From NCBI GenBank assembly GCA_028693815.1, contig JAQUUP010000003.1, positions 65,850 through 129,849 on the forward strand: a stretch of DNA of 64,000 bases. The letters run 5' to 3'. Position numbers and translations under genes: made by a program. This document shows, in pieces, positions 1 through 23,072 of the stretch. The stretch comes from Candidatus Omnitrophota bacterium (GTDB lineage: Bacteria; Omnitrophota; Gorgyraeia; Zapsychrales; Aceulaceae). Every line of letters starts with the position of its first letter. The stretch's first letter is position 1. The notes under the pieces were generated by a model. That model was not told where the DNA came from and made no database searches. It saw nothing but the letters and a program-made list of their open reading frames with translations.

Positions 1-1219
1 TATTTAGCGAATCCACCAGCGCCTCACGGACAGATACCGGCCCGCGGTATTTCTTGTCATAATCAAGCGGACGATAGCCGTTATATTGAACAGGTACATC
101 CGCCAAAATCATTCGAGGCGTATACAATCCCTTGTCAAAACCGATCGCGTATGTAAACGGCTTGAGTGCCGAGCCGGGACAGCGCAGACTTAATGCCCCA
201 TTGATTTGCCCGGAATTCTCATCAGAGAAAAAATCAACAGAACCTGCCATCGCACGTATTTTCCCCGTTTTATTTTCAATGATCACCACCGCGCCATTGG
301 ACACACCGCTTGATTCCAAACGGACAACCATGTCTTTAATCGCGGTCTCGGCAAAATGCTGAAGATCGGAATCAAGGCTTGTCACAACCGTTTGTTCTTT
401 AGAATTGACTCTGACAAAACGCGTAAAATGCGGAGCCTTAAATGGAAACGCGTAATTACCCGCGACAACAGGATCAGATTTGGCGATCCTGTATTCCTCG
501 TCTGTAATAAACTTATTCTCCAACATGCTCGAAAGAACACGATCACGTCGCTGTTTAGCCCGATCAGGATAACGATCCGGTCTTAGATAAGTGGGGGATT
601 GCGGAAGCCCTGCCAAAAGCGCGCATTCAGACAAACTCAAATCTTGAGGCAATTTCTGAAAATACCGCAAGGACGCGGCTTTGACCCCGTGGATATTCCC
701 GCCATAAGGCGCAAGCTCAAAATAAAACCTTAAGATCTCATCCTTCGTATACAGTCTCTCAAGATGTATCGCGTGAACCGTCTCAATGATCTTATTGAGG
801 AAACTCCGTTTCCTTCCTTCCAAAATTCTGATCACCTGCATGCTTAACGTCGATGCCCCGGAAATCACCCGCTGATTCGCCACATTCAGCTTAACCGCCC
901 GCAAGACCGCCTGAACATCCACACCAAAATGCTCGTAAAACCGCTTATCCTCAATGGCGATCGTGGCATTGACAAAATTCGGGTTTACCTCATCAAGATC
1001 TACCGGCAAAAGCCATCTATCTCCTTCACCGAGAAAAGCCCTTAACAAATTCCCTTCCCTGTCGAGAATCGTGCGCGAATAGCCAATCTTCTCGATTGCG
1101 GTATACGGAAACGGCACAAACTTTAAAATAGCAACATATCCCGCCACAGACAGCACACACGCCGTCACTGTCAAGACACACAAACCATTGAATAATTTTT
1201 TAAGGTTGATTCTTTTCAT
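1..1219 (-). CDS. pbpC: Penicillin-binding protein 1C (PbpC). Start ATG at 1219-1217; the 3' end runs off the window (406 codons present). The ORF caller missed it because it has no in-window stop.
   Basis: Manual minus-strand translation gives MKRINLKK... It carries GT51 transglycosylase motifs EDKRFYEHFGVD, GASTLSMQ and RKxxE. A transpeptidase region follows (GALSLRCPGSALKPF). The start overlaps the alpha-2-macroglobulin stop, as in the conserved a2M-pbpC pairing. Confidence 0.8.
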   Translation of the reverse strand, partial: MKRINLKKLFNGLCVLTVTACVLSVAGYVAILKFVPFPYTAIEKIGYSRTILDREGNLLRAFLGEGDRWLLPVDLDEVNPNFVNATIAIEDKRFYEHFGVDVQAVLRAVKLNVANQRVISGASTLSMQVIRILEGRKRSFLNKIIETVHAIHLERLYTKDEILRFYFELAPYGGNIHGVKAASLRYFQKLPQDLSLSECALLAGLPQSPTYLRPDRYPDRAKQRRDRVLSSMLENKFITDEEYRIAKSDPVVAGNYAFPFKAPHFTRFVRVNSKEQTVVTSLDSDLQHFAETAIKDMVVRLESSGVSNGAVVIIENKTGKIRAMAGSVDFFSDENSGQINGALSLRCPGSALKPFTYAIGFDKGLYTPRMILADVPVQYNGYRPLDYDKKYRGPVSVREALVDSLN

Positions 1220-1220
1220 C

Positions 1221-4200
1221 TTAATGAATAATCACACGCCCTTGCCCGCTGACGCTTTTAATACTCGGGTCATACATACACTCAGCGCTGACAGGCGGTA
1301 AAATAAAATTGCCTTGTGTCACGGCGCGGGCAACATACCTATAAGTAAACTTATTCTCTGAAGGCATGTCCGTAAAAATAAGGAACCTGTCATCCCGGAT
1401 ATCAATGTGATCCGGCAAGAAGTCTTTCTCCGACGATAAACCTGAACCGTCTCGTGTTTCAATCCTCGGATTTTCAATCTCAAAACCCGCCGGAAGCATA
1501 TCAGTAATCACAACATTTTCATAATTCAAATCAGTCTCAACGGACAATTCAACAACAACTGTCTCGCCCTGCGTAATGTCATTCTTGTTGATTTGATTCC
1601 CGTTTCTGTCTAAAAACTTTCTTCTTACGCGCAATCCTGAATCAGCTTCTTCAACTTTCTGTTCAAGTGAAACACCAGACGAATTCCAGTAATAATAAAC
1701 ATTCCCTCGACCCTGGACGGATAAAAAGACATCCTGACCGCCCAAATCCTTATCCTTGATCAACGCCGGGCTGGAATTGTCAAAGCCCGCGATCATTTGA
1801 TCCCCCAACATCACACTGCCTGAATATTCTTTATCCTGTGACTCGATATATCGGGCATATTTGCCCAACGCCAAAAGAGCAACCGCGTTATCCTGCGTTG
1901 TACCCCAGCGCCCTTCGTCCATCGATGATTCCACCCGTTTGACCAATATCGGCACCATTTCATTATCAGGATCAACATCCATATACGCTGATAAGGCAAT
2001 CGCGTTTTGTTTTGTGTAGGAATTAAGCGAACCGCCCGTTTCTCTTTGAACTTTTTCCTCCGGATAACTCTTGCCCAGCATTTGAGAAACGCTCTTGTCA
2101 TCTCCCAAATAAGCCAAGGCTATCGCCAGATGATACCGCGCGTAAACCGGCAGGCTTTCTTCTTTCTCCTGCAAACGTCTGATCCATGACGATTTCACCC
2201 GACCGGCTTTCGCCAAAACAGCCGCGGCATAGGCTTTTAAATCCAGCGAATAATCTTCTTCTTTGCCTGAAAGAACCTTTTCCAAATAATCTAACGCCAC
2301 ATCTTTCTCAAACTTCGGCACAACATAGCCCGCCTTGTCCGCCTCAACAAGAAAATCGGTCGCGTAAACACTGCCGTATGGATACGCGTCTTTATACCCA
2401 GGCCAGTAAGAGAACCCACCGGAATACGTCTGCATGGACAATATTCTCTTAATCCCTGCCTGAATATAATTGTCCGCGCCGCGCCCGCTCCATGACTTGG
2501 ATTCCACAAACTTGGCAACATCTTTTAAATACAATAACGGAAATACGGTTGATGTCGTCTGCTCGATACAGCCATAAGGATATTCCATCAAAAATGTCAA
2601 TCCCCCTGCAAGCTTGATGCCCGGCAAAGGCACAACTGATAACGCGTAACCCGCAGTACCTTTAAGCCACCCATCAGGCATCCTTAGCGTCTCATCAGCC
2701 GGAGCCTTGATCATGCCCGCCCCGCTTATGCTGGTAAACGGCGCCATGGGCCTAACCGGAATTTCAACCTCTTGAAAAGTATCATGCCCGTTTAATGAGG
2801 CACTGATTTTGATGTGTGCTTTTCCGGGGAGCAAAGGCGCCTTTAACTCAAATCGCGCAAATCCTTCCGTCTTATCTTTAACATCAATATCAAACGCCTT
2901 TTGGCTTATAACCTCAAACCCATCAGATACTTCGATCGTAATACTCGCCTTTCCGTCACTTCCTGACGTGTTAAAGACCGGCACAGGAATCATGAACGTG
3001 TCCCCTGAAGAAAGAAACCTCGGCAAAGTCGGCTTGATCATCACCGGCTCAGCAACTTTAATATCCGCATCAGCGCTTCCAAAATCATTATCACCCGCTG
3101 AAACCACCATCACTTTCAAATTCCCTGAAAATTGAGGGACATCAAACGTTACCGTTGCCTTACCCTGCGCGTCTGTCACAATGCCACTTTTCCATAACGC
3201 AACCGGCTTAACTCTTTTCGCGCTCACAGGATTCATATGTTTTCTGGGATCAAAATCAACGCCCTTACCAGCCGACGGGCTGGAATCCGCGCCGATCTTC
3301 TTTTGATCGATCTCAGGCATCAAAAGCGAATAAAGATCCATGGTCTGAATATCCTGCCTTCTCTTACCAAAGAAAAATTCATACGGATCCGGCGTTTTAA
3401 AACCGGTCAAACGCAATACCCCTTCATCCACAAGCGCGACAGACACCTCGGACGATTGCGGCATTCCGTCTTTATTCTTAACCTCAAGGGCGATATCCAC
3501 ACTCTTTCTTGGCAACATGCTTTGGGGAGCCTTAACCTGAACATCTAATTGATGCGCTGAATTATCCATCATCAAAGGAATAATTCCATACGCCCTGTGC
3601 GCCGACCATTTCTCTCCCGGAATAACAGGTTTGATCACGGTCACAGAAACGTACGCGTTTGGCGCAAGCTCATCTGTAACAGCAATCGGAATTTCCTGCG
3701 TTTCATTTTCAAGCGCAACAACTTGTGTTGAAAGCACTTCATCCTTTGAAATCGTAATCAACGCCTTTCCTTTAAACGGCGACTTGATCATCAACCGTGC
3801 TTCCTCACCAGACGTGTACGATTTCTTATCCAGCTCCAAATCAATCCGATCCGGCCGCTCCATCGCCCATGGCTGATACCCCCATCCCGAGACATGAAAT
3901 TTTAAGCTCGCCGTATGCGCGTTATCACCTTTTCCTTTGAGCCTGACGATATAACTGCCGTAAGAATCCGCTTTATAACTGAATGTTCCTTGCGAGGTCT
4001 CGGTCTTAATCACCTCATCGTAAACACATTCCTCTTTTTCATCAGAAACATAACGATACCGCCCGTCCTGATCTTTCTTCAAAACCGTATTCCAAATGAT
4101 CTTGCAAACCTCAACCTCAAGCTCATCAACAACCATTGCCGCGCCATCCGAAGAAAGCACAACATAATCAAACCCGACATCCTCACCTTCTTGAGCATAT

Positions 4201-6089
4201 CCTTCGTTGGTCTTGCGGATACCGACATAATAGGGATACGCGTCAACATCAACCTTGGAATAAGATGTGACAGCCCGCCCGCCAAGCTCTTTGACGGTGG
4301 TGACAAAAACCGCGTTCAATGCCGATGGCGGACGAATATCTTCAGCGATCTTGACATCAAATTCAGCCTCACCCGCTTCATTGGTATCTTTAAACCCGTG
4401 CGAAACCGTCTTTTTCATAAACTCAACTGTCTCATCAGAGAATCTAAAGTCAGAAAACTTCTTCACCTCAAAATCAACAGGCTTTAAGACATATTTAAGC
4501 TCAACTAACCGTCCAGCGGCCGGTGCCCCGAAAAGATGTTCAGCCTTTACTTTGACAGGAATCATCTCGCCCGTTTTGACCCGCGCTTGTGGCACAACAG
4601 CCTCAACCTTCATCCGGTCAGGAACAAATTCCTCCACATTAAACGAATAATTACCTATTGCCTTTTCAGACCCGGGCAGTTTAACGCTCACCTGATACCC
4701 ACCTGTAAGCGCGTAATCAGGAAGCGAAATATCCACATCAGCCGCGCCGAACGATGACAGCATGGCGGTTACCTTGTCAAAGCGCATACCGTCAGGCTTT
4801 TTAATATCAAACACAACCGGAAAAGACCCCGGCACCTCAACGCCAATACCTCTTATGATCGCGCGCAGACGCGCAACCTCACCGGGCCTGTAAACGCCCC
4901 TGTCCGAATAAACAAACCCTTCGTAACCCGCGCTTAAATATGGACGTCCTTCAATATCAAAGACCGTTTCAGACAGCGCGCATTTCTCCGCCTCAATAAA
5001 GGAGAGATCAAAATCTGTTGAGGCAGTGATAACAAACGGCTTCCTGTCTCCTGCCCAATCCACATCTTTGAAATAAACAAACCCCTGTTCGTCACTCGTC
5101 CCTTCCAAAATCTGCTGATTCGTTTGAGAAAAAACTTTCACGATCGCGCCAGCAACAGGCTCTGTGGAAGAAAGCGTATTAAGCCAGACAACAAGCCCGG
5201 ATTCAGACTTCTTGGCCAATATCCCGATATCTGTTGTTAAAAGCAGTTTGGTGTCGCTTTTGTAAGATGATTCATCGGCATCGGATACCTTCATAAAAAA
5301 CAAACCGTGGGAATCATTGGAGAGAATTTCTTTCAGATCAACAAGAACCTGCTTTTGTGTGTTTAACTCAGTCCCTGTTTTAATCTCTTTTTTAAAAACA
5401 TCAACACCCAAATCGTCGGGAATGGAATAAGAGCTCATATTATTGAGAAGATAGACAATATTGTTGTCATACACCCTGTGTATTTTCACGTCGAGCGCGT
5501 CAACATTCATGACATTAACAGGAACAAGCTGATTTCCCTCAAGAGATAAATACATCCCCGCGGATTCAAAATCCACATCCGCGCTGTAATCCGGCATAAC
5601 AACCTCAGCCTTAAAAGTTTCTTCAAGCGCCTTGCCTTCTGCTGAAGGCATTCCCTTTAATACTTCAACCTGATAAACCTCGCCCGGCTTAAAATCACCC
5701 TTCACCTCAACGCCATAATATGTTGTTTCAATATAAGAATTCACTTCAGGTGTGATCGCGATATAGCCTTTGATATCATCTAAATTGACATCATCGGAAA
5801 GCCTGATGCCGATTTCTCCGTTAGATCCACTCATGTATGGCTTAACAGATTTGACTTCAAAGCCTCTTTCCTCATATACCCTTCGGGGGCCGGTCACCGA
5901 GGGCTTGGAATCCTTGGCCTGCCAGAGAAAGCCTCTGACCGTTTTGTTGATGGTGTGCCAAATGCCGGGCTTTTCTTGAAGCCCCTGCTTCCCGTCTATT
6001 AGCGATATGATCTTCAGCAATCCCGCAATGTTGATGATTAAAAAGACTGCCGTAATCCAAAACCATTTTTTCTTGAATATCGCTAACAT
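1221..6089 (-). CDS. Bacterial alpha-2-macroglobulin family protein, thioester-containing, 1622 aa, with an N-terminal signal anchor.
   Basis: It has the thioester motif GCIEQ (YPYGCIEQTTSTVF). It is very long and beta-rich, MG-domain-like. The N-terminal hydrophobic segment is WFWITAVFLIINIAGLL. It lies immediately upstream of pbpC. Confidence 0.85.
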   Translation of the reverse strand: MLAIFKKKWFWITAVFLIINIAGLLKIISLIDGKQGLQEKPGIWHTINKTVRGFLWQAKDSKPSVTGPRRVYEERGFEVKSVKPYMSGSNGEIGIRLSDDVNLDDIKGYIAITPEVNSYIETTYYGVEVKGDFKPGEVYQVEVLKGMPSAEGKALEETFKAEVVMPDYSADVDFESAGMYLSLEGNQLVPVNVMNVDALDVKIHRVYDNNIVYLLNNMSSYSIPDDLGVDVFKKEIKTGTELNTQKQVLVDLKEILSNDSHGLFFMKVSDADESSYKSDTKLLLTTDIGILAKKSESGLVVWLNTLSSTEPVAGAIVKVFSQTNQQILEGTSDEQGFVYFKDVDWAGDRKPFVITASTDFDLSFIEAEKCALSETVFDIEGRPYLSAGYEGFVYSDRGVYRPGEVARLRAIIRGIGVEVPGSFPVVFDIKKPDGMRFDKVTAMLSSFGAADVDISLPDYALTGGYQVSVKLPGSEKAIGNYSFNVEEFVPDRMKVEAVVPQARVKTGEMIPVKVKAEHLFGAPAAGRLVELKYVLKPVDFEVKKFSDFRFSDETVEFMKKTVSHGFKDTNEAGEAEFDVKIAEDIRPPSALNAVFVTTVKELGGRAVTSYSKVDVDAYPYYVGIRKTNEGYAQEGEDVGFDYVVLSSDGAAMVVDELEVEVCKIIWNTVLKKDQDGRYRYVSDEKEECVYDEVIKTETSQGTFSYKADSYGSYIVRLKGKGDNAHTASLKFHVSGWGYQPWAMERPDRIDLELDKKSYTSGEEARLMIKSPFKGKALITISKDEVLSTQVVALENETQEIPIAVTDELAPNAYVSVTVIKPVIPGEKWSAHRAYGIIPLMMDNSAHQLDVQVKAPQSMLPRKSVDIALEVKNKDGMPQSSEVSVALVDEGVLRLTGFKTPDPYEFFFGKRRQDIQTMDLYSLLMPEIDQKKIGADSSPSAGKGVDFDPRKHMNPVSAKRVKPVALWKSGIVTDAQGKATVTFDVPQFSGNLKVMVVSAGDNDFGSADADIKVAEPVMIKPTLPRFLSSGDTFMIPVPVFNTSGSDGKASITIEVSDGFEVISQKAFDIDVKDKTEGFARFELKAPLLPGKAHIKISASLNGHDTFQEVEIPVRPMAPFTSISGAGMIKAPADETLRMPDGWLKGTAGYALSVVPLPGIKLAGGLTFLMEYPYGCIEQTTSTVFPLLYLKDVAKFVESKSWSGRGADNYIQAGIKRILSMQTYSGGFSYWPGYKDAYPYGSVYATDFLVEADKAGYVVPKFEKDVALDYLEKVLSGKEEDYSLDLKAYAAAVLAKAGRVKSSWIRRLQEKEESLPVYARYHLAIALAYLGDDKSVSQMLGKSYPEEKVQRETGGSLNSYTKQNAIALSAYMDVDPDNEMVPILVKRVESSMDEGRWGTTQDNAVALLALGKYARYIESQDKEYSGSVMLGDQMIAGFDNSSPALIKDKDLGGQDVFLSVQGRGNVYYYWNSSGVSLEQKVEEADSGLRVRRKFLDRNGNQINKNDITQGETVVVELSVETDLNYENVVITDMLPAGFEIENPRIETRDGSGLSSEKDFLPDHIDIRDDRFLIFTDMPSENKFTYRYVARAVTQGNFILPPVSAECMYDPSIKSVSGQGRVIIH

Positions 6090-6275
6090 TTATTCCCCCT
6101 TATGTTCTGTAAAAAATTCTCCATAAAATAAAAAATCCCTCGCAGGCTACGCCCACGAAGGTTTTACTTTTTTAACGTCCGGGTTCCCCCTTCAACTCGG
6201 GACAAAATTATGATGTGTATTTATTATACACCCGTTGTCAAGTATGCCTTAATGTGAGAAGTTTTCCTGCCATTC

Positions 6276-6773
6276 CTATTTTAAAATTTCCCATTGATCA
6301 CGATATTGATCCATCCAGTCCGATGGTATTGACGGCGAATCTGAATAAACCGGCTTAATACGCCGCATCTTCGTATCATTGCGCTTTTGCCCTCTCCGCC
6401 CGGGACTGGTTTTCCAATCCTTATGTGATTGCTTCAGAATATTAGCCACCTTTTTTGAAGGAAGAATATATGTTGTCGGCTGATTCTCATCATTCCACAC
6501 TTCCGGCAAGGTCACAAAAATATAATACAAATTATCATTTATCAGAGACTCATGCTTTTCATTCATCATCCAGCCTTTATCGGCAGAACGACCTTCCGTA
6601 CGGGTCTTAACCTGTATCTGAAGGTTTCTTTTGCCATCCTCACTCATCGCAATAATATCAACGGCCCTGGTATTCTCTGGCGCCAGACCGACAATAAACC
6701 CTAAAGCTGTAAGCCGTGCGACAACATAATGCTCACCGACTGATCTCACTTGTGCTTGAAGTAATTTACTCAT
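6276..6773 (-). CDS. Small hypothetical protein, paralog A of a tandem pair, with a putative PD-(D/E)xK nuclease-like core.
   Basis: The start ATG (MSKLLQ) overlaps the stop of the upstream paralog (ATGA overlap). Its E...VDIIA...IQVK pattern aligns with EYYV...VDIVL...IDVK in paralog B. Both proteins end in W(E/D)(I/L)LK. Confidence 0.5.
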   Translation of the reverse strand: MSKLLQAQVRSVGEHYVVARLTALGFIVGLAPENTRAVDIIAMSEDGKRNLQIQVKTRTEGRSADKGWMMNEKHESLINDNLYYIFVTLPEVWNDENQPTTYILPSKKVANILKQSHKDWKTSPGRRGQKRNDTKMRRIKPVYSDSPSIPSDWMDQYRDQWEILK

Positions 6774-7195
6774 TTCAACAAATCCCAATTATCCTTGAAA
6801 CCAATCCCTTTGGTGAGTATCCCCCATTCTCCGCCACGATTAATCATCTTTCTATTGCCCTTTGGATTCTTATACAACAACTCTGTAACTTCAGTCGATG
6901 GAACAATCCAACACTCCGGTAAAATATCATGAGCAGTGATATTATTTAAAAATGAAACTAAGACAACAAAATGCGATTCTTTCACTTTAGAAAAGTTATC
7001 CATGGGCCAAGCTATTTTTCCAGCAAGCCCCTTCACATCTATTGTCAGAAGCGTTCCATCTTCTTTTTCAAGAACAATATCAACCGACTTCTTATTGCCC
7101 AATGTTAAATGCGCGTCAAAACCCTTGCGATAAAGCATAGACAAAACATAATATTCAGCTGCTAAATTGGTATTATATGGTTTATGTTTCATCAT
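6770..7195 (-). CDS. Small hypothetical protein, paralog B of the tandem pair, with a putative PD-(D/E)xK-like core.
   Basis: The likely start MMKHKP lies 4 nt after the stop of the 4-TM gene, with a GGAG sequence upstream. It aligns with paralog A over about 110 aa. Confidence 0.5.
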   Translation of the reverse strand: MMKHKPYNTNLAAEYYVLSMLYRKGFDAHLTLGNKKSVDIVLEKEDGTLLTIDVKGLAGKIAWPMDNFSKVKESHFVVLVSFLNNITAHDILPECWIVPSTEVTELLYKNPKGNRKMINRGGEWGILTKGIGFKDNWDLLK

Positions 7196-7199
7196 TATA

Positions 7200-7649
7200 C
7201 TAACTGTAGCTCCAGACGATTGAACACACAAGAATAGCTGTCCCCAAACAATACATTGTCCGATAAATCCACTGATTTACCCGCTCTGTCAGCGTTACGC
7301 CTTTGTATGTTTGTATTTCCCAGCCACGAACAAATAATGTTCCCCAAAGCAATAGACAAGCCCCTATAATTTGTTGTGTAATAATCGTGATACTTCCCGC
7401 TTGTCCATATTTACAAAATAATAATTTTCCTGTCAGGGCACCCGATAATCCAAAAACTAAAATTAAACCAAATGAATTCCAAAAAGCGCGATTAACGATA
7501 TACGCATTCGACTCTCGATCTTCATCGGTTGACACGTCATTACGTCTTGCATTATCTTCCTTTTCTTTCTCAACCAGTTTTTTAGGCCAAAAGATCGCTA
7601 ATAAACATAAATACATAGCAAAAAAGAAATTTACTTTGGTCGGCTTCAT
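7200..7649 (-). CDS. Small 4-TM membrane protein, first gene of the three-gene operon.
   Basis: There are four hydrophobic helices. A GGAGGAA RBS sits 5 nt upstream of the ATG (MKPTKVNFFF). The ORF caller's longer start (7673) lacks an RBS. Confidence 0.55.
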   Translation of the reverse strand: MKPTKVNFFFAMYLCLLAIFWPKKLVEKEKEDNARRNDVSTDEDRESNAYIVNRAFWNSFGLILVFGLSGALTGKLLFCKYGQAGSITIITQQIIGACLLLWGTLFVRGWEIQTYKGVTLTERVNQWIYRTMYCLGTAILVCSIVWSYS

Positions 7650-7895
7650 TTCCTCCGCTCCTATTTGCAGCACCCCAAAACACGCTTTAAATCCCAGCGA
7701 TCTTGACTGTCTTTAGTCAAAATCCGTTTAATCCCCTGCCCCTCATATACTTCTTTATCTTATTGATTCTAGTCAATATCGTACAATCATCCTTGGCAAT
7801 ATTACGGAGATGTCACAATCAATCACTCAGGCAATTTCGCATTGATCTCTCTCAAAAATATTTTTAAAGAAAGTTTTCATGTCTTAGTAATTTAC

Positions 7896-9809: not shown

Positions 9810-9817
9810 TTTTCTCC

Positions 9818-12346: not shown

Positions 12347-12462
12347 ATCCTATCTTCCTGATTCCCATTAGCTTCAGAGCTCTATTAATGGCACCACCCG
12401 CAAGGTCATTCTTGTTTACAAAAAGATTATAAAACATTATAATACAAAAATCGCCAATATCC

Positions 12463-13599
12463 ATGAAAATTCTGGATGGCTTAACCAAACAAATAACTAT
12501 CGATATGGCCGAAACAAAAAAAACTGACAATTTTATCTACATTCACGACGATTATGAGGAGTGCAATTTCTGTTCCCAGAAATATAAGGACTACGGGATC
12601 TTCGAGTATTCGGGAGGTCAAAGCATTGATATTGAGTTCTTTCCCAAGAAGATGGACGCATTAGGCATCGTAGTTGATGCAAAATATTGGCTAACATATT
12701 TTGAAGCCAAGCACCCCAAACTACTCAAAGACCAAGGCATTCCTTACGACACCTCATCCTACGCTGATTATCTTAAAGCAGAAAATTCAATGTATAAAAA
12801 AAACAAAAGAGATGTCCTCGCGATTATCAACAAAAAAGTTGCCAGCAAGAAGCGCGGGATCTTCAAGCTCGATACAATCCCTTTCGATAAAGAGTATTTG
12901 GATAATTGTATTGCCAATAAACAAGAGCGGATTTTCTTGGGGCTAAGAATACACCTCAATGAAATAAGCGTAGCCAAAATAAATAAAGACGCTCCTTATG
13001 GCACCGGAATTGACTCGTATAAAAATATTTCAGAAGTTGCCCCTGAAATAAGAGATATCATATCCGGCCTCAAGCCGGAACGCATCCACCACATTCTTAC
13101 CGCTTATCATACGCAAGAAAGTTTCGACGAAGGCGACGTCGAGAACTTCCTCACAGGAGCAAAAGATTTCATTGAGGAAATTGACGAGGTTATCCACTAT
13201 AAAGACTCTGATTTTATAAAGCTATTAAAAAACATAGCACGCCTTTGTTTTCTGTGGCGAGACAAACAAAAAATATCTTCAAAATTTATAAAAGAGGCGA
13301 ATAATTTTATTCTGCTTAGACGCGAAATAAGATACAATCCGGTAATCGAGTTTATTGGTCTTTTCTTTGATGATTTGATCAATGATGCCAAAGAAAATAA
13401 TCAGCTCATCGAATGCGCCCACTGCCACTTGCTTGCCAAATATTACCGCAATAAAAAGTTTTGCAGTAAAACTACCGACGGAAAGAATTGCTTTGCTCAA
13501 TACCATAGCAAAAAAGATTACGCACGCCACAAAGCCAAAAGACTCAACACCAAAAAAGCATGGATCAATAAAACGCGCAAAGAAATCCCCGGATATTAA
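12463..13599 (+). CDS. Hypothetical 378-aa protein with a C-terminal Cys/His zinc-ribbon-like motif.
   Basis: It is a long, AT-rich ORF divergent from hsdR. The C-terminus has CAHCH...CSKTTDGKNC. It is followed by a rho-independent terminator. Confidence 0.6.
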   Translation: MKILDGLTKQITIDMAETKKTDNFIYIHDDYEECNFCSQKYKDYGIFEYSGGQSIDIEFFPKKMDALGIVVDAKYWLTYFEAKHPKLLKDQGIPYDTSSYADYLKAENSMYKKNKRDVLAIINKKVASKKRGIFKLDTIPFDKEYLDNCIANKQERIFLGLRIHLNEISVAKINKDAPYGTGIDSYKNISEVAPEIRDIISGLKPERIHHILTAYHTQESFDEGDVENFLTGAKDFIEEIDEVIHYKDSDFIKLLKNIARLCFLWRDKQKISSKFIKEANNFILLRREIRYNPVIEFIGLFFDDLINDAKENNQLIECAHCHLLAKYYRNKKFCSKTTDGKNCFAQYHSKKDYARHKAKRLNTKKAWINKTRKEIPGY

Positions 13600-13712
13600 G
13601 CCTTACCATACAGAAACACCCTGCCTTTTCTGATTTTTCTTTATATATAGAAAACCTTAAAAATCCTTCCGTTTATCAATCTACAACAATTCTGAGATTC
13701 GCCTAAACTTAA

Positions 13713-13743
13713 CTCTGTGAGCAAAAGCCACAGAGTTTTTTTA
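13713..13743 (+). terminator. Rho-independent terminator.
   Basis: The hairpin CTCTGTG-agcaaaagc-CACAGAG is followed by TTTTTTT. Confidence 0.6.
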
Positions 13744-13760
13744 TTAACCCAAAACGAATC

Positions 13761-13952
13761 ATGCTAAACGAACAGGCGATCAAAGAATTTCAGGACATTT
13801 ATTTCAGCGAATATGGCGAGGTGATCTCTTTTGATGAGGCAAGCGCCAAAGCTGAGAGTCTGCTTCGTTTATACCGGGCTGTATTTAAACCATCAAATAA
13901 TAAAGGCGATCATAATGGATCAAAAGCAAATACCTCATCAACTGCACAATAA
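13761..13952 (+). CDS. Small hypothetical protein (63 aa) overlapping the primase start.
   Basis: The ORF has a plausible helical sequence and could be a small regulator. Confidence 0.3.
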   Translation: MLNEQAIKEFQDIYFSEYGEVISFDEASAKAESLLRLYRAVFKPSNNKGDHNGSKANTSSTAQ

Positions 13953-15855
13953 ACAATTCGGCTTTGTGAAACTGCTACCGAAAACAAAGAAGCCGTTTGA
14001 AAAAGACTGGCCCAACCGTCCCTATTCGCTGACAGACATTCAACCGTGGTTTGATCAGGGCAACAATTACGGCGTTTTAGGCGGTCAGGGTGATCTGGTT
14101 ATTCTTGACGCGGATTCTGCGGAAATGGTCGCTTTGGCACGCAAACACCTTCCTCAGACCTTCACAGTCAAAACACCGAAAAAAGGCGTTCACTATTATC
14201 TTCTCTGTCCGGGCATCCCTCAAAAGATCAAGCTCAAGAAAAACGGCAAAGATCATGGCGAAATTATCTCTTACGGTTCTCAGGTAGTGGGCCCGGGCTC
14301 CATTCACCCAGACACTGGCACGGCCTACATTGTGGAACATAATGAGCCCATCGCCCCCATCACAACCGGCGAGCTTCTTTATATTCTAAAAGACTACATC
14401 CCGATGAATAATAACGAATCTGAAACCATTCATGATCCATCATTCAGCGCGTTGGTCGATCAATACGGCGATCCGTATTATTTCAACAACAAGGACAGGC
14501 TGGCCTCGATCAATCAAAGTTTCTGGGCGGGACTGCACAACACCGAACACATTCAAATCTATGAGCCGGATGAGCGGGCGTTCTACCGGTATGATGAGAA
14601 AACAGGCGTTTACAGTGACATTACCGAGAACCTCATCAAGAATGAAATCTCTGAGCGAATGCTGGATGTCTCGCGCGAAAATACCGTCCCTGCCTTGGAA
14701 GCCAAACGCACCGCGACCACATTGAATCACGTTGTGGCACATTTGAAAGGTGTCTGCGAAAAGCGCCACGCCTTTGTTAAGGCGTCCAACTTCGTACATT
14801 TGGCAAACGGCATTATCACGTTTAAGGATAACAACGAGGCTGACCTTCTGCCTTTTTCACCGGAGATGTTCTCACGCAATTTCTGCCCTATTGCCTTTGA
14901 TGAAAACGCCGAGTGTGATCAATTCTTAAATAATCTTCTTCTGCCTGCGGTTACACCTGAGAACGCGCTTATCATTCAGAAATACGTCGGCTTGTGTTTG
15001 CTGGGGAACAACCTCATTCAGCGGTTTCTTATTTTAGAGGGACTCCCGGGACGGGGAAAATCCACTCTCGCCTTGATCATTCAAAAACTTATCGGGCAGA
15101 TGAATGTGACTGAGCTTCGCACCAAACATTTAAGTGAACGCTTTGAGCTTTACCGCTATTTGAAAAAGACTTTGCTCATTGGGGTTGATGTGCCGGGCAA
15201 ATTCCTCTCTGAAAAAGGCGCTTATGTGATTAAAGGTTTGGTCGGCGGGGACTGGTTTGATGCTGAGCAAAAAGGCGGAACCGGATGCTTTCAGATACAG
15301 GGCAATTTCTGCATTGTGATCACTGCCAATTCACGATTGCAGGTCAAGCTGGACGGCGACATCGGGGCATGGAAACGCCGTTTATTGATCTGCCGTTTTG
15401 AGGGCCCGCCCCCGGTCAAAAAGATCCCTAACTTTGCGGATGTTTTGATCGAGCAAGAAGGCTCTGGCATTCTTAACTGGGCGCTTCAGGGATTGGCACT
15501 CCTTCTTGAAGATATTCAACACCACGGTGACATCGGCATGCCCGCGTCCCAAGATGGTGTGATTGATGCTCTGCTCGCTGAAAGCGACAGTCTGCGGCAT
15601 TTTCTTGAGGATACCATTGACCGTGATGATCACATGGATTTATCAGTCTCAGAAATCGTCGAGGCTTACGCTGAATATTGTCCTTCCAAGGGCTGGAATC
15701 CCAAGCCCATCACCGTGGTGCATCGTGAGCTGGAAGGTTTAATGTTGGAGCTGTTTGGGACGTCAAAAGCGCACTCGATCAAGCGGGACGGAAAGTCTGT
15801 CAAAGGATTTCGCCGCGTCAAATTTCAAGGTCAGGAGTCTCAAGAATGGGATTAG
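13915..15855 (+). CDS. Phage/plasmid primase-helicase: a Prim-Pol N-terminal domain joined to a D5/P4-type SF3 helicase domain.
   Basis: The start is MDQKQIP, with AAAGG upstream. The Prim-Pol-like N-terminus reads FGFVKLLPKTKKPFEKDW...VLGGQGDLVILDAD. The Walker A is GLPGRGKST. Confidence 0.8.
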   Translation: MDQKQIPHQLHNKQFGFVKLLPKTKKPFEKDWPNRPYSLTDIQPWFDQGNNYGVLGGQGDLVILDADSAEMVALARKHLPQTFTVKTPKKGVHYYLLCPGIPQKIKLKKNGKDHGEIISYGSQVVGPGSIHPDTGTAYIVEHNEPIAPITTGELLYILKDYIPMNNNESETIHDPSFSALVDQYGDPYYFNNKDRLASINQSFWAGLHNTEHIQIYEPDERAFYRYDEKTGVYSDITENLIKNEISERMLDVSRENTVPALEAKRTATTLNHVVAHLKGVCEKRHAFVKASNFVHLANGIITFKDNNEADLLPFSPEMFSRNFCPIAFDENAECDQFLNNLLLPAVTPENALIIQKYVGLCLLGNNLIQRFLILEGLPGRGKSTLALIIQKLIGQMNVTELRTKHLSERFELYRYLKKTLLIGVDVPGKFLSEKGAYVIKGLVGGDWFDAEQKGGTGCFQIQGNFCIVITANSRLQVKLDGDIGAWKRRLLICRFEGPPPVKKIPNFADVLIEQEGSGILNWALQGLALLLEDIQHHGDIGMPASQDGVIDALLAESDSLRHFLEDTIDRDDHMDLSVSEIVEAYAEYCPSKGWNPKPITVVHRELEGLMLELFGTSKAHSIKRDGKSVKGFRRVKFQGQESQEWD

Positions 15856-16379
15856 ACTTGGCACAACTGGAATGCGTAAAGCATCAGGGTAAAAAGATCA
15901 TTGCCCGATGCCCTGCCTGCGCTGAAACCGGTAATGACCGCAAGGGCGAGCATTTGTTTATTGAACCGGGCGGACGGTTTGGATGCGTTGTTTATCCGGG
16001 TGCCGAGGGGCATCAGCACCGCCAGCGCATTTTTGAACTGATCGGGATTAAGTCATCCGGAGATAAAGGATTTACGATCAGAAAGCCTTCCGATTGTAAT
16101 TCAAAGGATAAAATAATTCAAAAAAATATTTTGGGACGTTTGGGACGCATGCCGATGACTCACGCCCGAAAAGAAAAACAAACTAATGAACAAGAAATCA
16201 TTATTCCTAAAGAGACGAAAACAAGTGTCCCAGCCGTCCCAGAGGAAAGCCTGCATCTCTACTCCCCCGCTGAGCTTGAAATGCTGGACGGGATTGATAT
16301 GGAGTCGCTTAAACAGATTGATGAGGTCAAGCGCATGTTTAACGGAACCGTGGTCAGTGTTACAGACACACAACCCTAA
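15846..16379 (+). CDS. Hypothetical protein with an N-terminal Cys-Pro-x-Cys...His zinc-finger-like motif.
   Basis: The motif reads ARCPACAETGNDRKGEHLF...FGC. The start overlaps the primase stop. Confidence 0.5.
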   Translation: MGLDLAQLECVKHQGKKIIARCPACAETGNDRKGEHLFIEPGGRFGCVVYPGAEGHQHRQRIFELIGIKSSGDKGFTIRKPSDCNSKDKIIQKNILGRLGRMPMTHARKEKQTNEQEIIIPKETKTSVPAVPEESLHLYSPAELEMLDGIDMESLKQIDEVKRMFNGTVVSVTDTQP

Positions 16380-16412
16380 TGATTTAGGAAAAATTTAAGG
16401 AGGAAAACAATC

Positions 16413-16916
16413 ATGGGACGATGGTCATATTCAAGTAGATGGACGGTTGAAGAAAGCAAATCCCTCTCCGTACATTTTCTCAACAAACACCGGTATTTTA
16501 ACGGCGGTATCCGATCAGGCGGATGCAACTGGAGCCGTAACGGTGAACCGAACGGAAGCATTGGCTTTACGGTTTCAACGCTTGAGGGTGATAAATATAT
16601 CCGCTTTCAATACACACAAACCGACAAGCACACGAATGAAAAAACTGAACTGGATTATAAAGCGCGCCTCACATGGACACCGTGTCATTTTGGAGGACGT
16701 CGATGGTGGTTCATCTGTCCTTTGGTCGTCAATGGTGTTGCGTGCAATCGTCGTGTGGGCGTTTTGTATCTGGCAGGCGGGAAATACTTCGGATGCCGTC
16801 ACTGCTACAACCTGACGTATGAAAGCTGTAAAGAAAGCCATAAATTTGATGCGATGTTTAAAAGCATGGGCGTTGATCCAAAGGTCGGCAAACAACTATT
16901 TAAGGAGGAATTTTAA
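16413..16916 (+). CDS. Hypothetical Cys-rich protein (167 aa).
   Basis: An RBS AAGGAGGAAAAC precedes the ATG. The motifs are CHFGGRRWWFICP...CNRR...GCRHCYN. Confidence 0.5.
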   Translation: MGRWSYSSRWTVEESKSLSVHFLNKHRYFNGGIRSGGCNWSRNGEPNGSIGFTVSTLEGDKYIRFQYTQTDKHTNEKTELDYKARLTWTPCHFGGRRWWFICPLVVNGVACNRRVGVLYLAGGKYFGCRHCYNLTYESCKESHKFDAMFKSMGVDPKVGKQLFKEEF

Positions 16917-16917
16917 C

Positions 16918-17535
16918 ATGACAACAGATAAACAAATCGAAGCGAACAAACAAAACGCGCTGGTGTCCACCGGGCCCAAGAGCATCGAAGGCAAAAACCT
17001 TGTTTCTCAAAACGCCATCAAGCACGGCATCTTTGCCAAAGATTTGATCATTTCAGACGGTGACGGGCAGGAAAACAAGCAGGAATACCGGGAGCTTTTA
17101 GACGGCCTTATTGCCAGTCTGAATCCCGCAGGACAAATGGAATGCCTGTTGGTTGAGAAGATCGCTGTGGATTTCTGGCGCCTGCGCCGTGTCCTGCGAT
17201 TTGAAACAGGAAGCATCCGTAAGTTTCTGGATATGGCCGTTCATGACTATTACAATAAAAAGGACTGCTTCGGAGGAAAGATCAACAAAACCAATGAGGA
17301 TATTGACGAGGAACTTGCTGAATATCGAGAATCGAACGACAAGCGCTCACAGAAAAAGATCGATGAACTGGAGAAGGCAAAGCTCAAGAACCAATACGCT
17401 GAAGATGTGATGGTCAAGACCAACAGCCTCCCCGCCGGGGATACTTATGAAAAGGTCATCAAATACGAAAAGGCGGTGCAACGATCTATCCTTCAAAACA
17501 TTGCTTTACTCAAACGCATTCAGTCGATGAGATAA
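16918..17535 (+). CDS. Hypothetical protein.
   Basis: A GGAGG RBS precedes an ATG lying immediately after the previous stop. Confidence 0.5.
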   Translation: MTTDKQIEANKQNALVSTGPKSIEGKNLVSQNAIKHGIFAKDLIISDGDGQENKQEYRELLDGLIASLNPAGQMECLLVEKIAVDFWRLRRVLRFETGSIRKFLDMAVHDYYNKKDCFGGKINKTNEDIDEELAEYRESNDKRSQKKIDELEKAKLKNQYAEDVMVKTNSLPAGDTYEKVIKYEKAVQRSILQNIALLKRIQSMR

Positions 17536-17763
17536 GATGGCTTTGTTTTGGAAAAATAAACGCGGGTCCTTCCGGGGCGGGGTTGGTCGAGGGTCGGGCG
17601 AGGCGCAGTCTGTCAGTGATTTAAAATTTCAAATGTCGTGTCATACGAATTTTCAAAAAAGGATTCTTTTTGGGACAAATGATTTAGGAACACATGCGAC
17701 AAATAACTTGAACTCCATCAAAGAAAGATTATAATGTTTTATAAGGTTAAGGAGAAAAACACC

Positions 17764-17940
17764 ATGAGCGAATATATGACGATCAAAGAAGCCGCGGAGT
17801 ATCTCAAGGTCACCGGGCAGACACTCCGCAACTGGGACAAGCTGGGTAAGCTCAAACCTTACCGTCATCCGATGAACAATTACCGTCTTTATAAAAAAGC
17901 TGATTTGGACAAAATCCTTAAATCGATCAAAAAAAAATGA
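17764..17940 (+). CDS. Excisionase/AlpA-type HTH DNA-binding protein.
   Basis: The HTH region reads MTIKEAAEYLKVTGQTLRNWDKLGKLKPY. A AAGGAGAAAAA RBS is present. The gene overlaps the recombinase start. Confidence 0.6.
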   Translation: MSEYMTIKEAAEYLKVTGQTLRNWDKLGKLKPYRHPMNNYRLYKKADLDKILKSIKKK

Positions 17941-19562
17941 ACACTTCCACTATCCGATATTTTCTTTACGCGCGCAAATCTTCCGAGAGTGAAGATAAGC
18001 AAGTGGCCTCTATCCCCTCGCAGATCGACGAACTTAAACGTCTGGCTGAGGACAGAAATTTAACGGTTGTTGATATTTTCACGGAAGAAAAATCTGCCAA
18101 GGCACCGGGACGTCCGGTATTCAGTCAAATGATTGAGGCAATTCATAAAGGTGACGCAAACGGCATCATCTGCTGGAAGCTCGATCGATTGGCGCGCAAT
18201 CCTATTGACGGCGGGACGATCAACTGGCTTCTGCAACAGGGCATCATTCAACACATTCAAACCTTTCAGCGGGGATATTTCCCGACCGATAATGTCTTGA
18301 TGATGAATCTTGAGTTCGGCATGGCCAATCAGTTTGTGCTGGATTTATCCGTCAACACCAAGCGAGGCATGAGAAAAAAAGTTGAGGACGGCTGGTTTCC
18401 TCACAAACCGCCGATCGGTTATTTATCTAATAAACATAAACTTCCTGACCTTCCCCCTATTTTCAAAGACAAAGACAGGTTCGCTATCGTCAAACAACTT
18501 TGGGAAACGATCCTTGCCAAACGATGCACGGTCAAATCCATTCACGAGCTTGCTAATGATTTAGGATTAAAAACACATTCCGGGCGCAGGATCACCGAAG
18601 GGCAATGCCATTTGATGTTTCGCAATCCGTTTTATTATGGATTTTTCAACTGGAAGGGAAATATTTACAAAGGCAATCACGAGCCGATGGTGAGCAAACA
18701 GCAATTTGATGAGGTGCAAGCGATTCTTGATGGACGGTCATTTACTTGCGCTCAAAAGCATGTGTTCGCCTTTACCGGGCTGATCCGTTGCGGGGAATGC
18801 GGAGCCGCGATCACGGCTGAGAATAAAACCAAGCATCAGAAAAACGGAAACGTCCATCATTACACATATTACCGTTGCACCAAGCGCATCAAAAAGTGTT
18901 CGCAGAAACCGCTTCGGGTTGAGGAGCTGGAAGAACAAATCGCTAATGTTTTAGGAAAAATCGAGATCCCCTCCACCTTCCATCAATGGGCGATCAGTCA
19001 ATTACGCGTGGAACAGGAAGTTGAAAAAGATGATCAAAAAGAGATCACGGCCGGTTATCGTAAATCATTGGACACGTGTGTGCGGAAATTAAACGCCTTG
19101 TTTGACCTTCGCTTAACAGGTGAGGTCAACCCGGAGGAATTTAAGACGCACAAGGCTAACCTGCTTAAAGAAAAGCACAAATATGAGGAACTCATCAATG
19201 ACACAAACAGTCGGGTTGAGACATGGCTGGATCGGGCGGAGAAAATGCTGGAATTTGCTGAAACCGCTAATGGTCGGTTCGAACTCGGAGATTTAAATGA
19301 AAAGCGCGAAATATTGGCGGGATTAGGCTCAAACCTCTCGCTATTCGATAAGAAACTGTCAATTCAGCTCGCCACACCGCTTGAACTGGTCTTGGAGGTC
19401 GCACCCGAAGTTCAGGCGCTTCACAAACGGTTAGAACCTCATTATCCCATTGAAAACAAAAGGGCATACGAAGAATCGTATGCCCAAATTGAAAAATGGG
19501 GTGGGCAACCGGATTTGAACCGGCGACCTTCTGAACCACAATCAGATGCTCTAACCAACTGA
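17937..19562 (+). CDS. Large serine recombinase (integrase).
   Basis: The N-terminal resolvase domain has YARKSSESEDKQ with the catalytic Ser. The recombinase domain has a zinc ribbon, CGECG...YYRC. A coiled-coil C-terminus follows. The last ~22 codons are antisense to tRNA-His. Confidence 0.85.
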   Translation: MNTSTIRYFLYARKSSESEDKQVASIPSQIDELKRLAEDRNLTVVDIFTEEKSAKAPGRPVFSQMIEAIHKGDANGIICWKLDRLARNPIDGGTINWLLQQGIIQHIQTFQRGYFPTDNVLMMNLEFGMANQFVLDLSVNTKRGMRKKVEDGWFPHKPPIGYLSNKHKLPDLPPIFKDKDRFAIVKQLWETILAKRCTVKSIHELANDLGLKTHSGRRITEGQCHLMFRNPFYYGFFNWKGNIYKGNHEPMVSKQQFDEVQAILDGRSFTCAQKHVFAFTGLIRCGECGAAITAENKTKHQKNGNVHHYTYYRCTKRIKKCSQKPLRVEELEEQIANVLGKIEIPSTFHQWAISQLRVEQEVEKDDQKEITAGYRKSLDTCVRKLNALFDLRLTGEVNPEEFKTHKANLLKEKHKYEELINDTNSRVETWLDRAEKMLEFAETANGRFELGDLNEKREILAGLGSNLSLFDKKLSIQLATPLELVLEVAPEVQALHKRLEPHYPIENKRAYEESYAQIEKWGGQPDLNRRPSEPQSDALTN

Positions 19563-19574
19563 GCTATGCCCACC
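19497..19574 (-). tRNA. tRNA-His (anticodon GTG), with genomically encoded G-1 and 3' CCA.
   Basis: The cloverleaf was folded manually: GGTGGGCA...TCTGA-TTGTGGT-TCAGA...TGCCCACC-CCA. The 8-bp acceptor stem is typical of tRNA-His. Confidence 0.85.
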
Positions 19575-19689
19575 ATAAATAAAAATTTAAATTATTTGGC
19601 CTTCAAGCGACATAACTTAGATATTTGAAATTTTAAGAAAATCTATCAAAATTAAGTAAACGTTATTTTACAAGATTATTACAAATTGT

Positions 19690-22476: not shown

Positions 22477-22499
22477 AGCAGATTCTTTGACAAAAAGCG

Positions 22500-23072
22500 C
22501 TAAAGCAAAAAATAAAATTTGGATAAAATAATACTTTTTATTCCCTGTCCTGATAAAACGAACAAAAAAGAAAAAGCAATCAAAATCAGCAATGTCAGCA
22601 AAGAATCATTGCGCCCAGGAATCCAATAAACAGCCTGACCTAAAACCGGATGAACAACAAACAATGTTGACAAAATAAAAGTTTTTGCTTTAGAAAAACC
22701 TAAGTCTAATAATAAAGAAAACAAAAAACATGTCGCTGCAAGATGGATGATAACATTTGTCAGATGATAAATAGTAGGATTCGTGCCAAAAAGAGAGGCT
22801 TCTAACATAAAAACAGCAGCCAAGATCGGCCGATAATACGGAGCATCAGGCTGATTGCCAAAAAAGATATCTTGACTAAACAATTTTGGAAAATTCATTG
22901 GATTCTTCATGAAATTAATATGATCAAGAATTAAAACATTGTCATCAAGATATGAAAATCCAAAAAATAAAGATTGCGCATAAATAGAAAGGCCAATAAG
23001 AGCAAGCCATGCAAAAGGATGCCAAGAATCTAAAAAAATATAATAAAAATAGGAGCGAAGCGATTGTTTCAT
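22500..23072 (-). CDS. Polytopic membrane domain, PMT/TMTC-like, N-terminal part of the split gene.
   Basis: It has 5-6 TM helices and DD.N/YRP-type motifs. It ends just before a T-run. Confidence 0.55.
   Translation of the reverse strand: MKQSLRSYFYYIFLDSWHPFAWLALIGLSIYAQSLFFGFSYLDDNVLILDHINFMKNPMNFPKLFSQDIFFGNQPDAPYYRPILAAVFMLEASLFGTNPTIYHLTNVIIHLAATCFLFSLLLDLGFSKAKTFILSTLFVVHPVLGQAVYWIPGRNDSLLTLLILIAFSFLFVLSGQGIKSIILSKFYFLL

Follow-up and report, generated by a model that had tools for sequence, protein, structure and literature searches.

We analysed a 64,000-nucleotide (nt) stretch of a Candidatus Omnitrophota genome (assembly GCA_028693815.1, contig JAQUUP010000003.1, positions 65,850 to 129,849 of the forward strand; hereafter the window), the left 19.5 kb of which very probably contain an element that is integrated at the 3′ end of a tRNA-His gene and encodes a large serine recombinase (LSR). 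The tRNA-His gene (GTG; minus strand, 19497-19573, with G-1 at 19574) is intact and has an encoded CCA (ARAGORN; Rfam tRNA 70.7 bits). Its 3′ end faces the LSR gene (plus strand, 17937..19562). The 541-amino acid (aa) product has the N-terminal resolvase catalytic domain, C-terminal Recombinase domain and zinc ribbon that define LSRs (Resolvase, PF00239, 2.1e-19; Recombinase, PF07508, 9.5e-12; Zn_ribbon_recom, PF13408, 1.8e-12), and an alignment of 30 sequences shows no variation at residues Y11, R13, S15, Q22, D83, R84 and R87. In the PDB, the protein matches the C-terminal domain of the A118 integrase (4KIS/6DNW, 4e-11) and, through its N-terminal domain, the TP901-1 integrase and a conjugative-transposon recombinase. 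Homologues number in the thousands (2,032 clusters at E <= 1e-30) and align over 96% of the query; against the phage and plasmid collections covered, A118 among their integrases, identity of the LSR is no more than 24-27%.

An earlier note on this DNA, made from its letters without database searches, held that the 3′ end of the recombinase gene abuts the 3′ end of the tRNA. The contact goes further: the recombinase open reading frame (ORF) overlaps tRNA-His by 66 nt in antisense and ends at a TGA stop at 19560-19562. Residues 1-520 of the LSR are encoded by the element, Trp521-Gly522 by the att core, and residues 523-541 together with the TGA by the antisense strand of tRNA-His. The common core, TGGGGT (19497..19502), forms the right end of the element and appears to hold the crossover. 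It is the antisense of tRNA-His A71-C72-C73-C74-C75-A76, the Trp521 codon TGG being the antisense of CCA.

The LSR gene closes a conserved integration and replication module on the plus strand (13757..19502), delimited by blastn against two contigs, L001 (Logan SRR21285607) and L002 (JGI 3300017613). In the window and in both contigs, which come from different hosts, the module adjoins tRNA-His. Nucleotide identity to L001 is 91.3% over 5835 nt (window 13757-19591), that to L002 is 74% over window 13757-17264 and 79% over 17729-19581, and homology begins at 13757 in both. Gene order is the same in all three: a 63-aa ORF (13761-13952), a gene for a Prim-Pol and DUF5906/SF3-helicase protein (13831-15855), orf177 (15846-16379), orf167 (16413-16916), orf238 (16819-17535), a 68-aa Xis-like HTH_17/MerR ORF that overlaps the LSR start (17734-17940), and the integrase. 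All module ORFs are full length, with 92-95% protein identity to L001, and dN/dS between the window and L001 is 0.02-0.16 over five module gene pairs (0.12-0.16 for orf177 and orf167). The small ORFs orf177, orf167 and orf238, described before as three unknown cargo ORFs, are core genes of the module and not cargo, because they are conserved in L001 and L002 (62-95% protein identity) and because dN/dS is low for orf177 and orf167.

The N terminus of the replicase matches the prim-pol domain of pRN1 ORF904, and its helicase/C-terminal region scores 103.2 bits against TIGR01613 ('P4 family'), for which the cut-off is 108.7. The description of the element as P4-like thus holds for the helicase and C-terminal domain only, and there below the cut-off; it does not extend to the pRN1-type primase or the serine integrase, and capsid-hijacking genes are absent. 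No module ORF matches a structural or capsid-hijacking family in PHROGs. In IMG/VR, a single-sequence LSR query finds no relative, a primase query retrieves two distant loci, and the best match of an LSR alignment is 41% identical and has no tRNA nearby. With IMG/VR essentially without relatives and PHROGs without structural genes, a prophage reading was dropped. We propose instead that the module is the core of a small integrative element of Candidatus Omnitrophica and neighbouring uncultivated lineages, comprising the LSR, the HTH_17/MerR protein, the pRN1-type Prim-Pol/SF3-helicase replicase and three or four conserved small ORFs. The HTH_17/MerR protein is the likely directionality factor of the LSR; to our knowledge, 'excisionase-like' proteins of this type do not usually serve LSRs in that role.

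Domain and ORF calls agree with the gene list that the earlier note gave for the DNA left of tRNA-His: a fragment of pbpC, a gene for a bacterial alpha-2-macroglobulin (a2M), a trio of small ORFs, a type I restriction-modification (R-M) system and an orphan ORF precede the module. The right 44 kb are ordinary chromosome (RdgB, RNase PH, QueC/E, MurI, amidase, secretin, PilB, BioA and Pgi). GC content is 0.460 over 1-6256, 0.385 over 6257-13756, 0.462 over 13757-19496 and 0.356 over 19574-64000. GC at third codon positions (GC3) averages 0.29 +/- 0.03 over 29 flank ORFs, none of which exceeds 0.35, and reaches 0.50 in pbpC, 0.48 in a2M and 0.46-0.56 in the module genes, at least 5 standard deviations over the flank. 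In the segment made up of the trio, the R-M genes and the orphan it is 0.32-0.44 (HsdM-S 0.32 and HsdR 0.35, both at the upper end of the flank range; orphan 0.44). Raw tetranucleotide distances from the flank are 0.038 for the a2M block and 0.036 for the module, as against at most 0.018 for flank chunks of the same size, and the R-M segment (0.0177, r = 0.80) lies inside the flank range. The repeated switches in composition that had been seen by eye, with GC-richer a2M/pbpC and primase segments, are therefore real and put these segments far outside the flank background, and the general picture of a tRNA-His-anchored, compositionally mosaic region ending in a primase-helicase/serine-integrase element stands. 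The element exceeds its host in GC in all three cases (window 0.46 versus 0.36, L001 0.44 versus 0.39, L002 0.42 versus 0.34), which runs counter to the AT bias that mobile DNA usually shows.

The right junction

The AsmA-like protein encoded next to tRNA-His is 100% identical to P0121 of a Candidatus Omnitrophica metagenome-assembled genome (MAG), and this MAG is the host; the protein also led to relatives of the host (73%, 60% and 49% identity). Metagenomes scanned with this protein, and in a second scan with a 58-nt tRNA-His pattern, gave no match. Rightwards of tRNA-His, synteny with the relatives extends over more than 10 kb, and it is lost exactly at the tRNA. L019 (GCA_029931885.1) has the gene order of the window (amidase, MurI, Que genes, RNase PH, RdgB, AsmA-952, tRNA-Pro, TPR genes, tRNA-Arg, AsmA-like gene, tRNA-His), L020, whose contig stops short of the tRNA, keeps RdgB through the AsmA-like gene, and L021 keeps the TPR gene, tRNA-Arg, the AsmA-like gene and tRNA-His. 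To the left of the tRNA, L019 has a GATase_4 gene and L021 the end of an rve-type transposase, and no window gene from 1-19496 is present in the 0.4-1.1 kb that can be read past the tRNA in these two, a span that does not cover a2M-pbpC or R-M genes further on. The tRNA-associated breakpoint anticipated by the earlier note is thus found, with gene order kept on the right (L019-L021) and unrelated DNA on the left (L019 and L021).

L019 and L021 are empty tRNA-His sites, with no integrase behind the tRNA, as are L022, L023, L025 and L026, short contigs with the same AsmA protein. The empty sites resemble the window only from TGGGGT rightwards, and unrelated sequence follows ...CACCCCA. Occupied sites, empty sites and the non-tRNA copies L003-L005 have exactly TGGGGT in common, with nothing shared on both sides of it. 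Between the window and L001 there is 1 difference in the 66 nt through TGGGGT and about 10 in the next 28 nt, and acceptor pairs 6:67 and 7:66 covary with the 5′ strand of each host. These comparisons place the crossover within the last six bases of the tRNA-His gene, A71-A76. A crossover in the T-loop or anticodon loop was considered and rejected, as the tRNA 3′ strand differs between elements that are 91% identical; that this strand matches the 5′ strand of each host and the empty-site tRNAs further excludes a deeper crossover. Because the crossover would lie at its last six bases, tRNA-His stays intact and no long repeat is made. No long direct repeat is present at the right junction or flanking the element within the window.

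In the mechanism we propose, the LSR would join TGGGGT in its own Trp-Gly codons to the ACCCCA 3′ end of tRNA-His (positions 71-76), with tRNA-His as the B′ arm of attB. The integrase frame would then enter the tRNA antisense, which would supply its stop, 19 codons past the core here and one codon past it in relatives. That the LSR itself catalysed this integration is what we infer from the arrangement of gene, core and tRNA. The window end of the element, as it would enter an attP junction, reads ...GAAAAATGGGGT. The antisense of tRNA-His would yield, in frame, TGG GGT GGA TGA (WGG-stop) in L019 and TGG GGT GAG TGA (WGE-stop) in L021, and 70 of the 120 closest homologues have WGG-stop or WGE-stop endings. 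In the window, the tRNA antisense continues with GGG CAA and gives no immediate stop, so that the frame goes 18 codons further (Q524-N541); the 66-nt overlap is for this reason a by-product of the host tRNA sequence.

Two further features lie close to these sites. A perfect 9-bp inverted repeat, GGGCATACG-N6-CGTATGCCC, is located in the 3′ end of the integrase gene at 19454-19477, about 20 nt before the att core; L001 shares this repeat and L002 lacks it. In the right flank, a 552-aa PMT_2/TPR protein of L019 matches two minus-strand ORFs in different frames (22500-23072 and 21403-22476), its residues 1-158 corresponding to 23072-22566 and its residues 163-545 to 22554-21418 of the window, and 21403-23072 thus appears to be a gene with a frameshift or to contain a sequencing error.

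C-terminal tails across the integrase family

Among the C-terminal tails of 118 close homologues and of 141 representatives at 50% identity, classes of fixed spacing can be told apart. In class (a) the stop comes right after W-G-x (75 of 118 close homologues, 6 of 141 representatives). Class (b) tails consist of W, four residues and [DEG][SL]N (15/118 and 31/141), and class (c) tails of W, six residues and [VILF]R[TN] (11/118 and 14/141). The class (b) motif is what the T-loop, G-ATTCGAA-C, encodes when its antisense strand is translated in frame, and several class (b) tails run on through the His anticodon loop (...EPQSDALT). The [VI]-R-T of class (c) corresponds to (G/A)TT CGA ACN, the same T-loop-like word in another frame. 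Neither the class (b) nor the class (c) motif occurs anywhere else in the integrase protein bodies.

In class (c), TTCGAA would lie at nt 23-28 after the T of TGG, versus nt 18-23 in the tRNA, a shift of +5 nt. In the DNA itself, the starts are nt 18 for TTTGAAC in each of four tRNA arms and nt 23 for TGCGAAC in L004, the sole attP-type locus with DNA; L004 has an LRT tail and no tRNA, and relaxase and coupling-protein genes surround it. For the Listeria A118-type integrase, attB has been shown to hold the zinc-ribbon (ZD) motif 5 bp nearer its centre than attP does (Rutherford 2013, PMC3783163). Because the +5-nt shift seems to mirror this attB/attP spacing, class (c) may represent the attP form of free elements, with classes (a) and (b) being integrated copies, as judged from one DNA example and the protein tails. 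If the motif fills attB half-site positions 11-19, the central dinucleotide would be GT (core nt 5-6; tRNA 72-71).

The L004 locus has a second peculiarity. At 1512-4927, its integrase gene, 81% identical to that of the window, converges on an unrelated gene for a 623-aa serine recombinase, with an overlap of about 70 nt, and this second recombinase gene reads through the TGGGGT core on the other strand; a relaxase, a T4 coupling protein and a tyrosine recombinase are encoded nearby. In L005 (3552-3620), TGGGGT is followed by a stretch that resembles the tRNA-His anticodon arm in antisense (ctcctgaaccacaat) and has no T-arm. ARAGORN finds no tRNA in it; the stretch may stem from a tRNA-His that has decayed or form an attP arm of tRNA origin.

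Members of this LSR clade occur in Candidatus Omnitrophica, Elusimicrobia, Scalindua and many metagenomic lineages. Several of them, among which P0074, P0083, P0089 and P0098 (Candidatus Scalindua), have tails such as WWRIGESNP and WLPRLDSNQ. In these tails the base after the CCA antisense is not G, and the discriminator is accordingly not tRNA-His C73; sub-clades of this kind seem to have moved to other tRNAs with the register Trp = CCA kept. Taken together, the tails make a wider proposal plausible, though we hold it tentatively: the clade, large and apparently not described before, would use the CCA end of tRNAs as attB (tRNA-His here, other tRNAs elsewhere), would carry the att core in its own last codons, and would have a C terminus that switches between a free W-x6-[VI]-R-T tail, encoding a T-loop mimic 5 bp further out where the zinc-ribbon model expects it in attP, and an integrated tail formed by a stop or by tRNA antisense. 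If this is true, the C-terminal switch could mark or regulate the integrated state.

Cargo slot, a2M-pbpC block and left end

Directly left of the module, the type I R-M system is encoded on the minus strand by an HsdM-S fusion (7896..9809), a methylase with a specificity domain of a single target recognition domain (TRD) (N6_Mtase 4.5e-47, Methylase_S 8.6e-16, PADLOC MTase_I 6.8e-87), and by the restriction subunit HsdR (9818..12346; ResIII 1.9e-39, HSDR_N, PADLOC REase_I 5.5e-59). Judged by its domains, the system has HsdR, HsdM and HsdS functions encoded together. The one TRD is fused at the C terminus of HsdM-S and there is no separate two-TRD HsdS gene; a type I system would presumably need two M-S copies for a bipartite site. 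The 378-aa orphan ORF (plus strand, 12463..13599) has no match in Pfam, PHROGs, PADLOC or NCBIfam, and is followed by a terminator-like hairpin and T-run (13711-13742), as read from the sequence. On the other side of the R-M genes lies the minus-strand trio (6276..7673): orf170 (6276-6788), orf153 (6770-7231) and orf157 (7200-7673). orf170 and orf153 are overlapping paralogues (28% identical, E 1e-8), both match phrog_29029 (unknown function), and they have in common the pattern E...D(I/V)(I/V)...(Q/D)-x-K, typical of PD-(D/E)xK nucleases. orf157, upstream of them, encodes a hydrophobic protein. The trio has no Pfam, PADLOC or NCBIfam match and looks like an uncharacterised three-gene unit beside R-M. 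On function, searches of Pfam, PHROGs, PADLOC, NCBIfam and the PDB gave nothing usable for the trio, the orphan or orf177, orf167 and orf238.

In both L001 and L002, type III Mod/Res genes adjoin the 63-aa ORF on its left and are read from the strand opposite to the module, and the type I R-M genes of the window have the same position and strand. Past its LSR gene, L005 encodes a helicase, a PD-Lambda-2_B-like protein and a HigB-like toxin. We suggest that the slot directly left of the module would be the variable cargo position of the family, filled in the window by type I R-M and probably shared with the orphan ORF and the nuclease-like trio. Since sister elements hold type III R-M in the same slot, the R-M genes are, on balance, slightly more likely than not to be cargo of the LSR element.

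This bears on the suggestion of the earlier note that the region grew by stacked acquisitions at one tRNA hotspot, that is, by successive independent integrations at tRNA-His of a2M-pbpC, then the trio, R-M and orphan, then the primase-integrase element. Such a history would account for three composition classes with sharp borders, for independent breakpoints at 6256 and 13756, and for a site with differing contents in relatives and a further occupant in L002. We nevertheless consider it improbable. The 19.5 kb contain a single integrase, and no Phage_integrase domain is found in 1-19574; there is no second TGGGGT core, tRNA-His fragment or tRNA-like remnant in 1-13900; and R-M genes fill the same slot inside sister elements. 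Moreover, newcomers at the CCA end would push older integrases leftwards, and no older integrase is seen. A swap of cargo inside one element explains the R-M genes at least as well as a separate integration.

The leftmost segment consists of a PBP1C-type pbpC fragment (minus strand, 1..1216), which is cut by the window start and retains the N-terminal 405 aa (Pfam Transgly 7.7e-53 and Transpeptidase), and the 1622-aa thioester a2M (minus strand, 1221..6089), with nine a2M/MG Pfam domains and the thioester motif CIEQ at aa 1174 (nt 2559-2570). An MG-domain a2M with a CxEQ thioester and pbpC directly downstream make up an a2M-PBP1C pair of the ECAM/YfhM type. Two other loci, L006, from a Planctomycetia MAG, and L065, a contig of another sample, share the arrangement of a2M followed by pbpC; the window pbpC is 66% identical in aa sequence to the gene that follows a2M in L006, and the closest relative of the window a2M is P0127 of L065, at 97% aa identity. 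The named homologues of a2M, at 47-55% identity, are from Candidatus Omnitrophica, and an a2M query of GTDB gave no match above 51% identity. The family thus appears to be at home in Candidatus Omnitrophica, yet the composition of the window copy looks foreign to the window genome.

L065 also defines the border of this block. Its nucleotide identity to the window is 96.4% over 547-6091 and 99.3% over 6117-6256 (140 nt), the latter within the intergenic region upstream of a2M (6092..6256), and homology ends at 6256, with 20 nt left to the stop codon of the first trio ORF. As L065 parts from the window there, 6256/6257 is an independent breakpoint. Directly upstream of its a2M gene, L065 has an extra 503 nt (188-690, about window 6092-6116) that are missing from the window and contain a 158-aa ORF with a GIY-YIG-like motif by eye (IYSIF...YVGE) and no NCBIfam match. 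A TGGGGT in L065 1-47, 36 nt past the 6256 break, was set aside as a coincidence: it is on the opposite strand to the attR core, has an expectation of about 2%, and has no T-loop-like motif at the attP spacing (4/8 matches at nt 22-29).

The abrupt changes in GC, in a sequence that comes from a MAG, raise the question of whether GC-rich segments of another organism were joined to an Omnitrophica contig in assembly or binning. We regard this as most improbable. The integrase/tRNA-His junction is found in two other assemblies with different tRNA variants, the 6-bp shared core is too short for a mis-join, and the tRNA acceptor strands match one another. At the left, an independent assembly confirms the region upstream of a2M as far as 6256, but not the join to the trio at 6256/6257.

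Could a2M-pbpC belong to the element? After correction for GC, the tetranucleotide signature of the block correlates with the module (r = 0.87), with L001 (0.85) and with L002 chunks (0.79-0.81); for 12 unrelated chunks of similar GC r is at most 0.66, and the mean of 13 chunks, L001 included, is 0.57 +/- 0.11. The lowest value is that for its own homologous locus, L006 (0.36-0.39). With few controls, this likeness is a lead rather than proof. It would fit one element of more than 19.5 kb that carries all of 1-19502, a2M-pbpC included, and has its left att site beyond the window start, as would the lack of attL in a window whose module genes are intact and under purifying selection. We think it unlikely that such a large element exists, and just as unlikely that a2M-pbpC lies inside the DNA delimited by the integrase: in L065 the block (96%) diverges at 6256 and is therefore not fixed to the trio and R-M genes, the a2M subfamily is common in Candidatus Omnitrophica MAGs, a2M occurs in no other family member seen, and the tetranucleotide controls are few. 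The claim that everything left of the tRNA is accessory accordingly holds for an accessory region as such, and for a2M-pbpC is a matter of inference, not confirmation.

The left end of the element was sought in several ways. There is no plus-strand TGGGGT in 1-13900, no one-mismatch TGGGGT in the four intergenic regions of 1-13900, and no core with a T-loop-like octamer at attP or attB spacing in the left part of the window. An inverted copy of the P arm was not found (best match 23/45), and a motif search of 1-13800 detected no encoded VRTC-type tail. The direct repeat of the tRNA-His 3′ end that the earlier note proposed to look for is likewise absent from the window, where a repeat finder and a 10-mer search gave chance matches only and k-mer matches to the tRNA region are of at most 10-13 nt, none extending into a repeat; with a shared core of 6 bp, such a repeat is not expected of a serine integrase. 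Smith-Waterman searches for a tRNA-His fragment with five tRNA-His variants scored 19-27, versus 19-25 for shuffles, and Rfam at E <= 10 has no tRNA-like match in 1-14000. The borders are thus a right end mapped to 6 bp, internal borders at 13756/13757 and 6256/6257, and a left end outside the window.

The explanation that in our view probably accounts best for the whole is a conserved LSR element at the CCA end of tRNA-His, with a variable cargo slot, and further left, beyond the 6256 breakpoint, a compositionally foreign a2M-pbpC block. Several observations weigh against it. No reads or contigs show excision of the window copy, and recombination has not been observed. The flank past the tRNA, the expected second half-site, is unconserved between hosts, which have only an A-rich run in common. 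No attL is found in the window. The R-M cargo resembles the host in composition and not the module, whereas in L002 cargo and module agree. Finally, homology to L001 and L002, followed leftwards, stops right at the start codon (ATG) of the first module ORF, the upstream promoter region of the sisters having been replaced. This last loss also fits a truncated, immobile remnant, in which only 13757-19502 would derive from the element, its cargo and attL being lost, the DNA to the left would be strain-specific chromosome, and a2M-pbpC would be an older transfer; the absence of attL and an R-M segment within the host range of GC3 and tetranucleotides are in keeping with it. We give such a stranded remnant a poor chance, given that the module ORFs are full length, 92-95% identical to those of L001 and of low dN/dS, and that defence cargo in the same slot of L001 and L002 makes the position of the R-M genes unlikely to be a coincidence. 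A conserved LSR element with a cargo slot thus remains the reading we prefer. In the window genome, the R-M genes and possibly a2M-pbpC may then be mobile cargo and not fixed chromosome.

Comparison with known systems

P4-like satellites and similar islands combine an integrase, a small HTH protein, a primase-helicase, a variable R-M or defence slot and insertion next to a tRNA, as is the case here. P4-like satellites proper have a tyrosine integrase and the capsid-redirecting genes psu, sid and delta. The element differs from them in its serine integrase, in an AEP/Prim-Pol of the pRN1 ORF904 type, and in having no genes of the psu, sid or delta type.

The islands in tRNA genes (tDNA) mapped by Islander and TIGER, which have tyrosine integrases, are alike in that an integrase gene lies beside an intact tRNA at one end, accessory and defence cargo is carried, synteny breaks at the tRNA, and the site is reused in related hosts. 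Here, by contrast, the integrase is an LSR, there is no displaced tRNA fragment in the window, and the crossover would lie in the last 6 nt, A71-A76, not in the region of the T-loop or the anticodon. Islands classically land in tRNA genes, and the tools that map them expect to see a tyrosine integrase together with a displaced tRNA fragment; if widespread, fragment-free serine-integrase islands at the last six tRNA bases would escape such tools. The present reading, if true, adds a class of islands in poorly known phyla, and would provide serine integrases with a universally conserved natural attB that could be useful for genome engineering.

In mycobacteriophages with attP inside the repressor gene, the integrated and free forms of the repressor differ at the C terminus. 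In the element described here the gene concerned is that of the integrase, and the alternative tail would be tRNA antisense or an immediate stop.

A further comparison is with characterised LSRs (A118/LI, TP901-1, phiC31, Bxb1 and SCCmec CcrAB), which have the same Resolvase, Recombinase and zinc-ribbon domains, and whose short att sites without long repeats may have a counterpart in the TGGGGT core of the right junction. The 5-bp shift of the ZD motif seems to be mirrored by the tRNA arm (nt 18) and L004 (nt 23). The element also differs from them: its target is the end of a tRNA gene, not a protein-coding gene, and its att core is within the integrase coding sequence, such that C terminus and stop would change on integration. 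A literature search of incomplete coverage, which may have missed a later report, found no serine integrase at tRNA-His or any other tDNA, and the CCA end of tRNAs has so far been credited as a target to tyrosine integrases only, which would make its use by a serine integrase new. As a genomic island the locus is ordinary; what is new is a serine-integrase element at a tRNA CCA end with its att core inside the integrase ORF.

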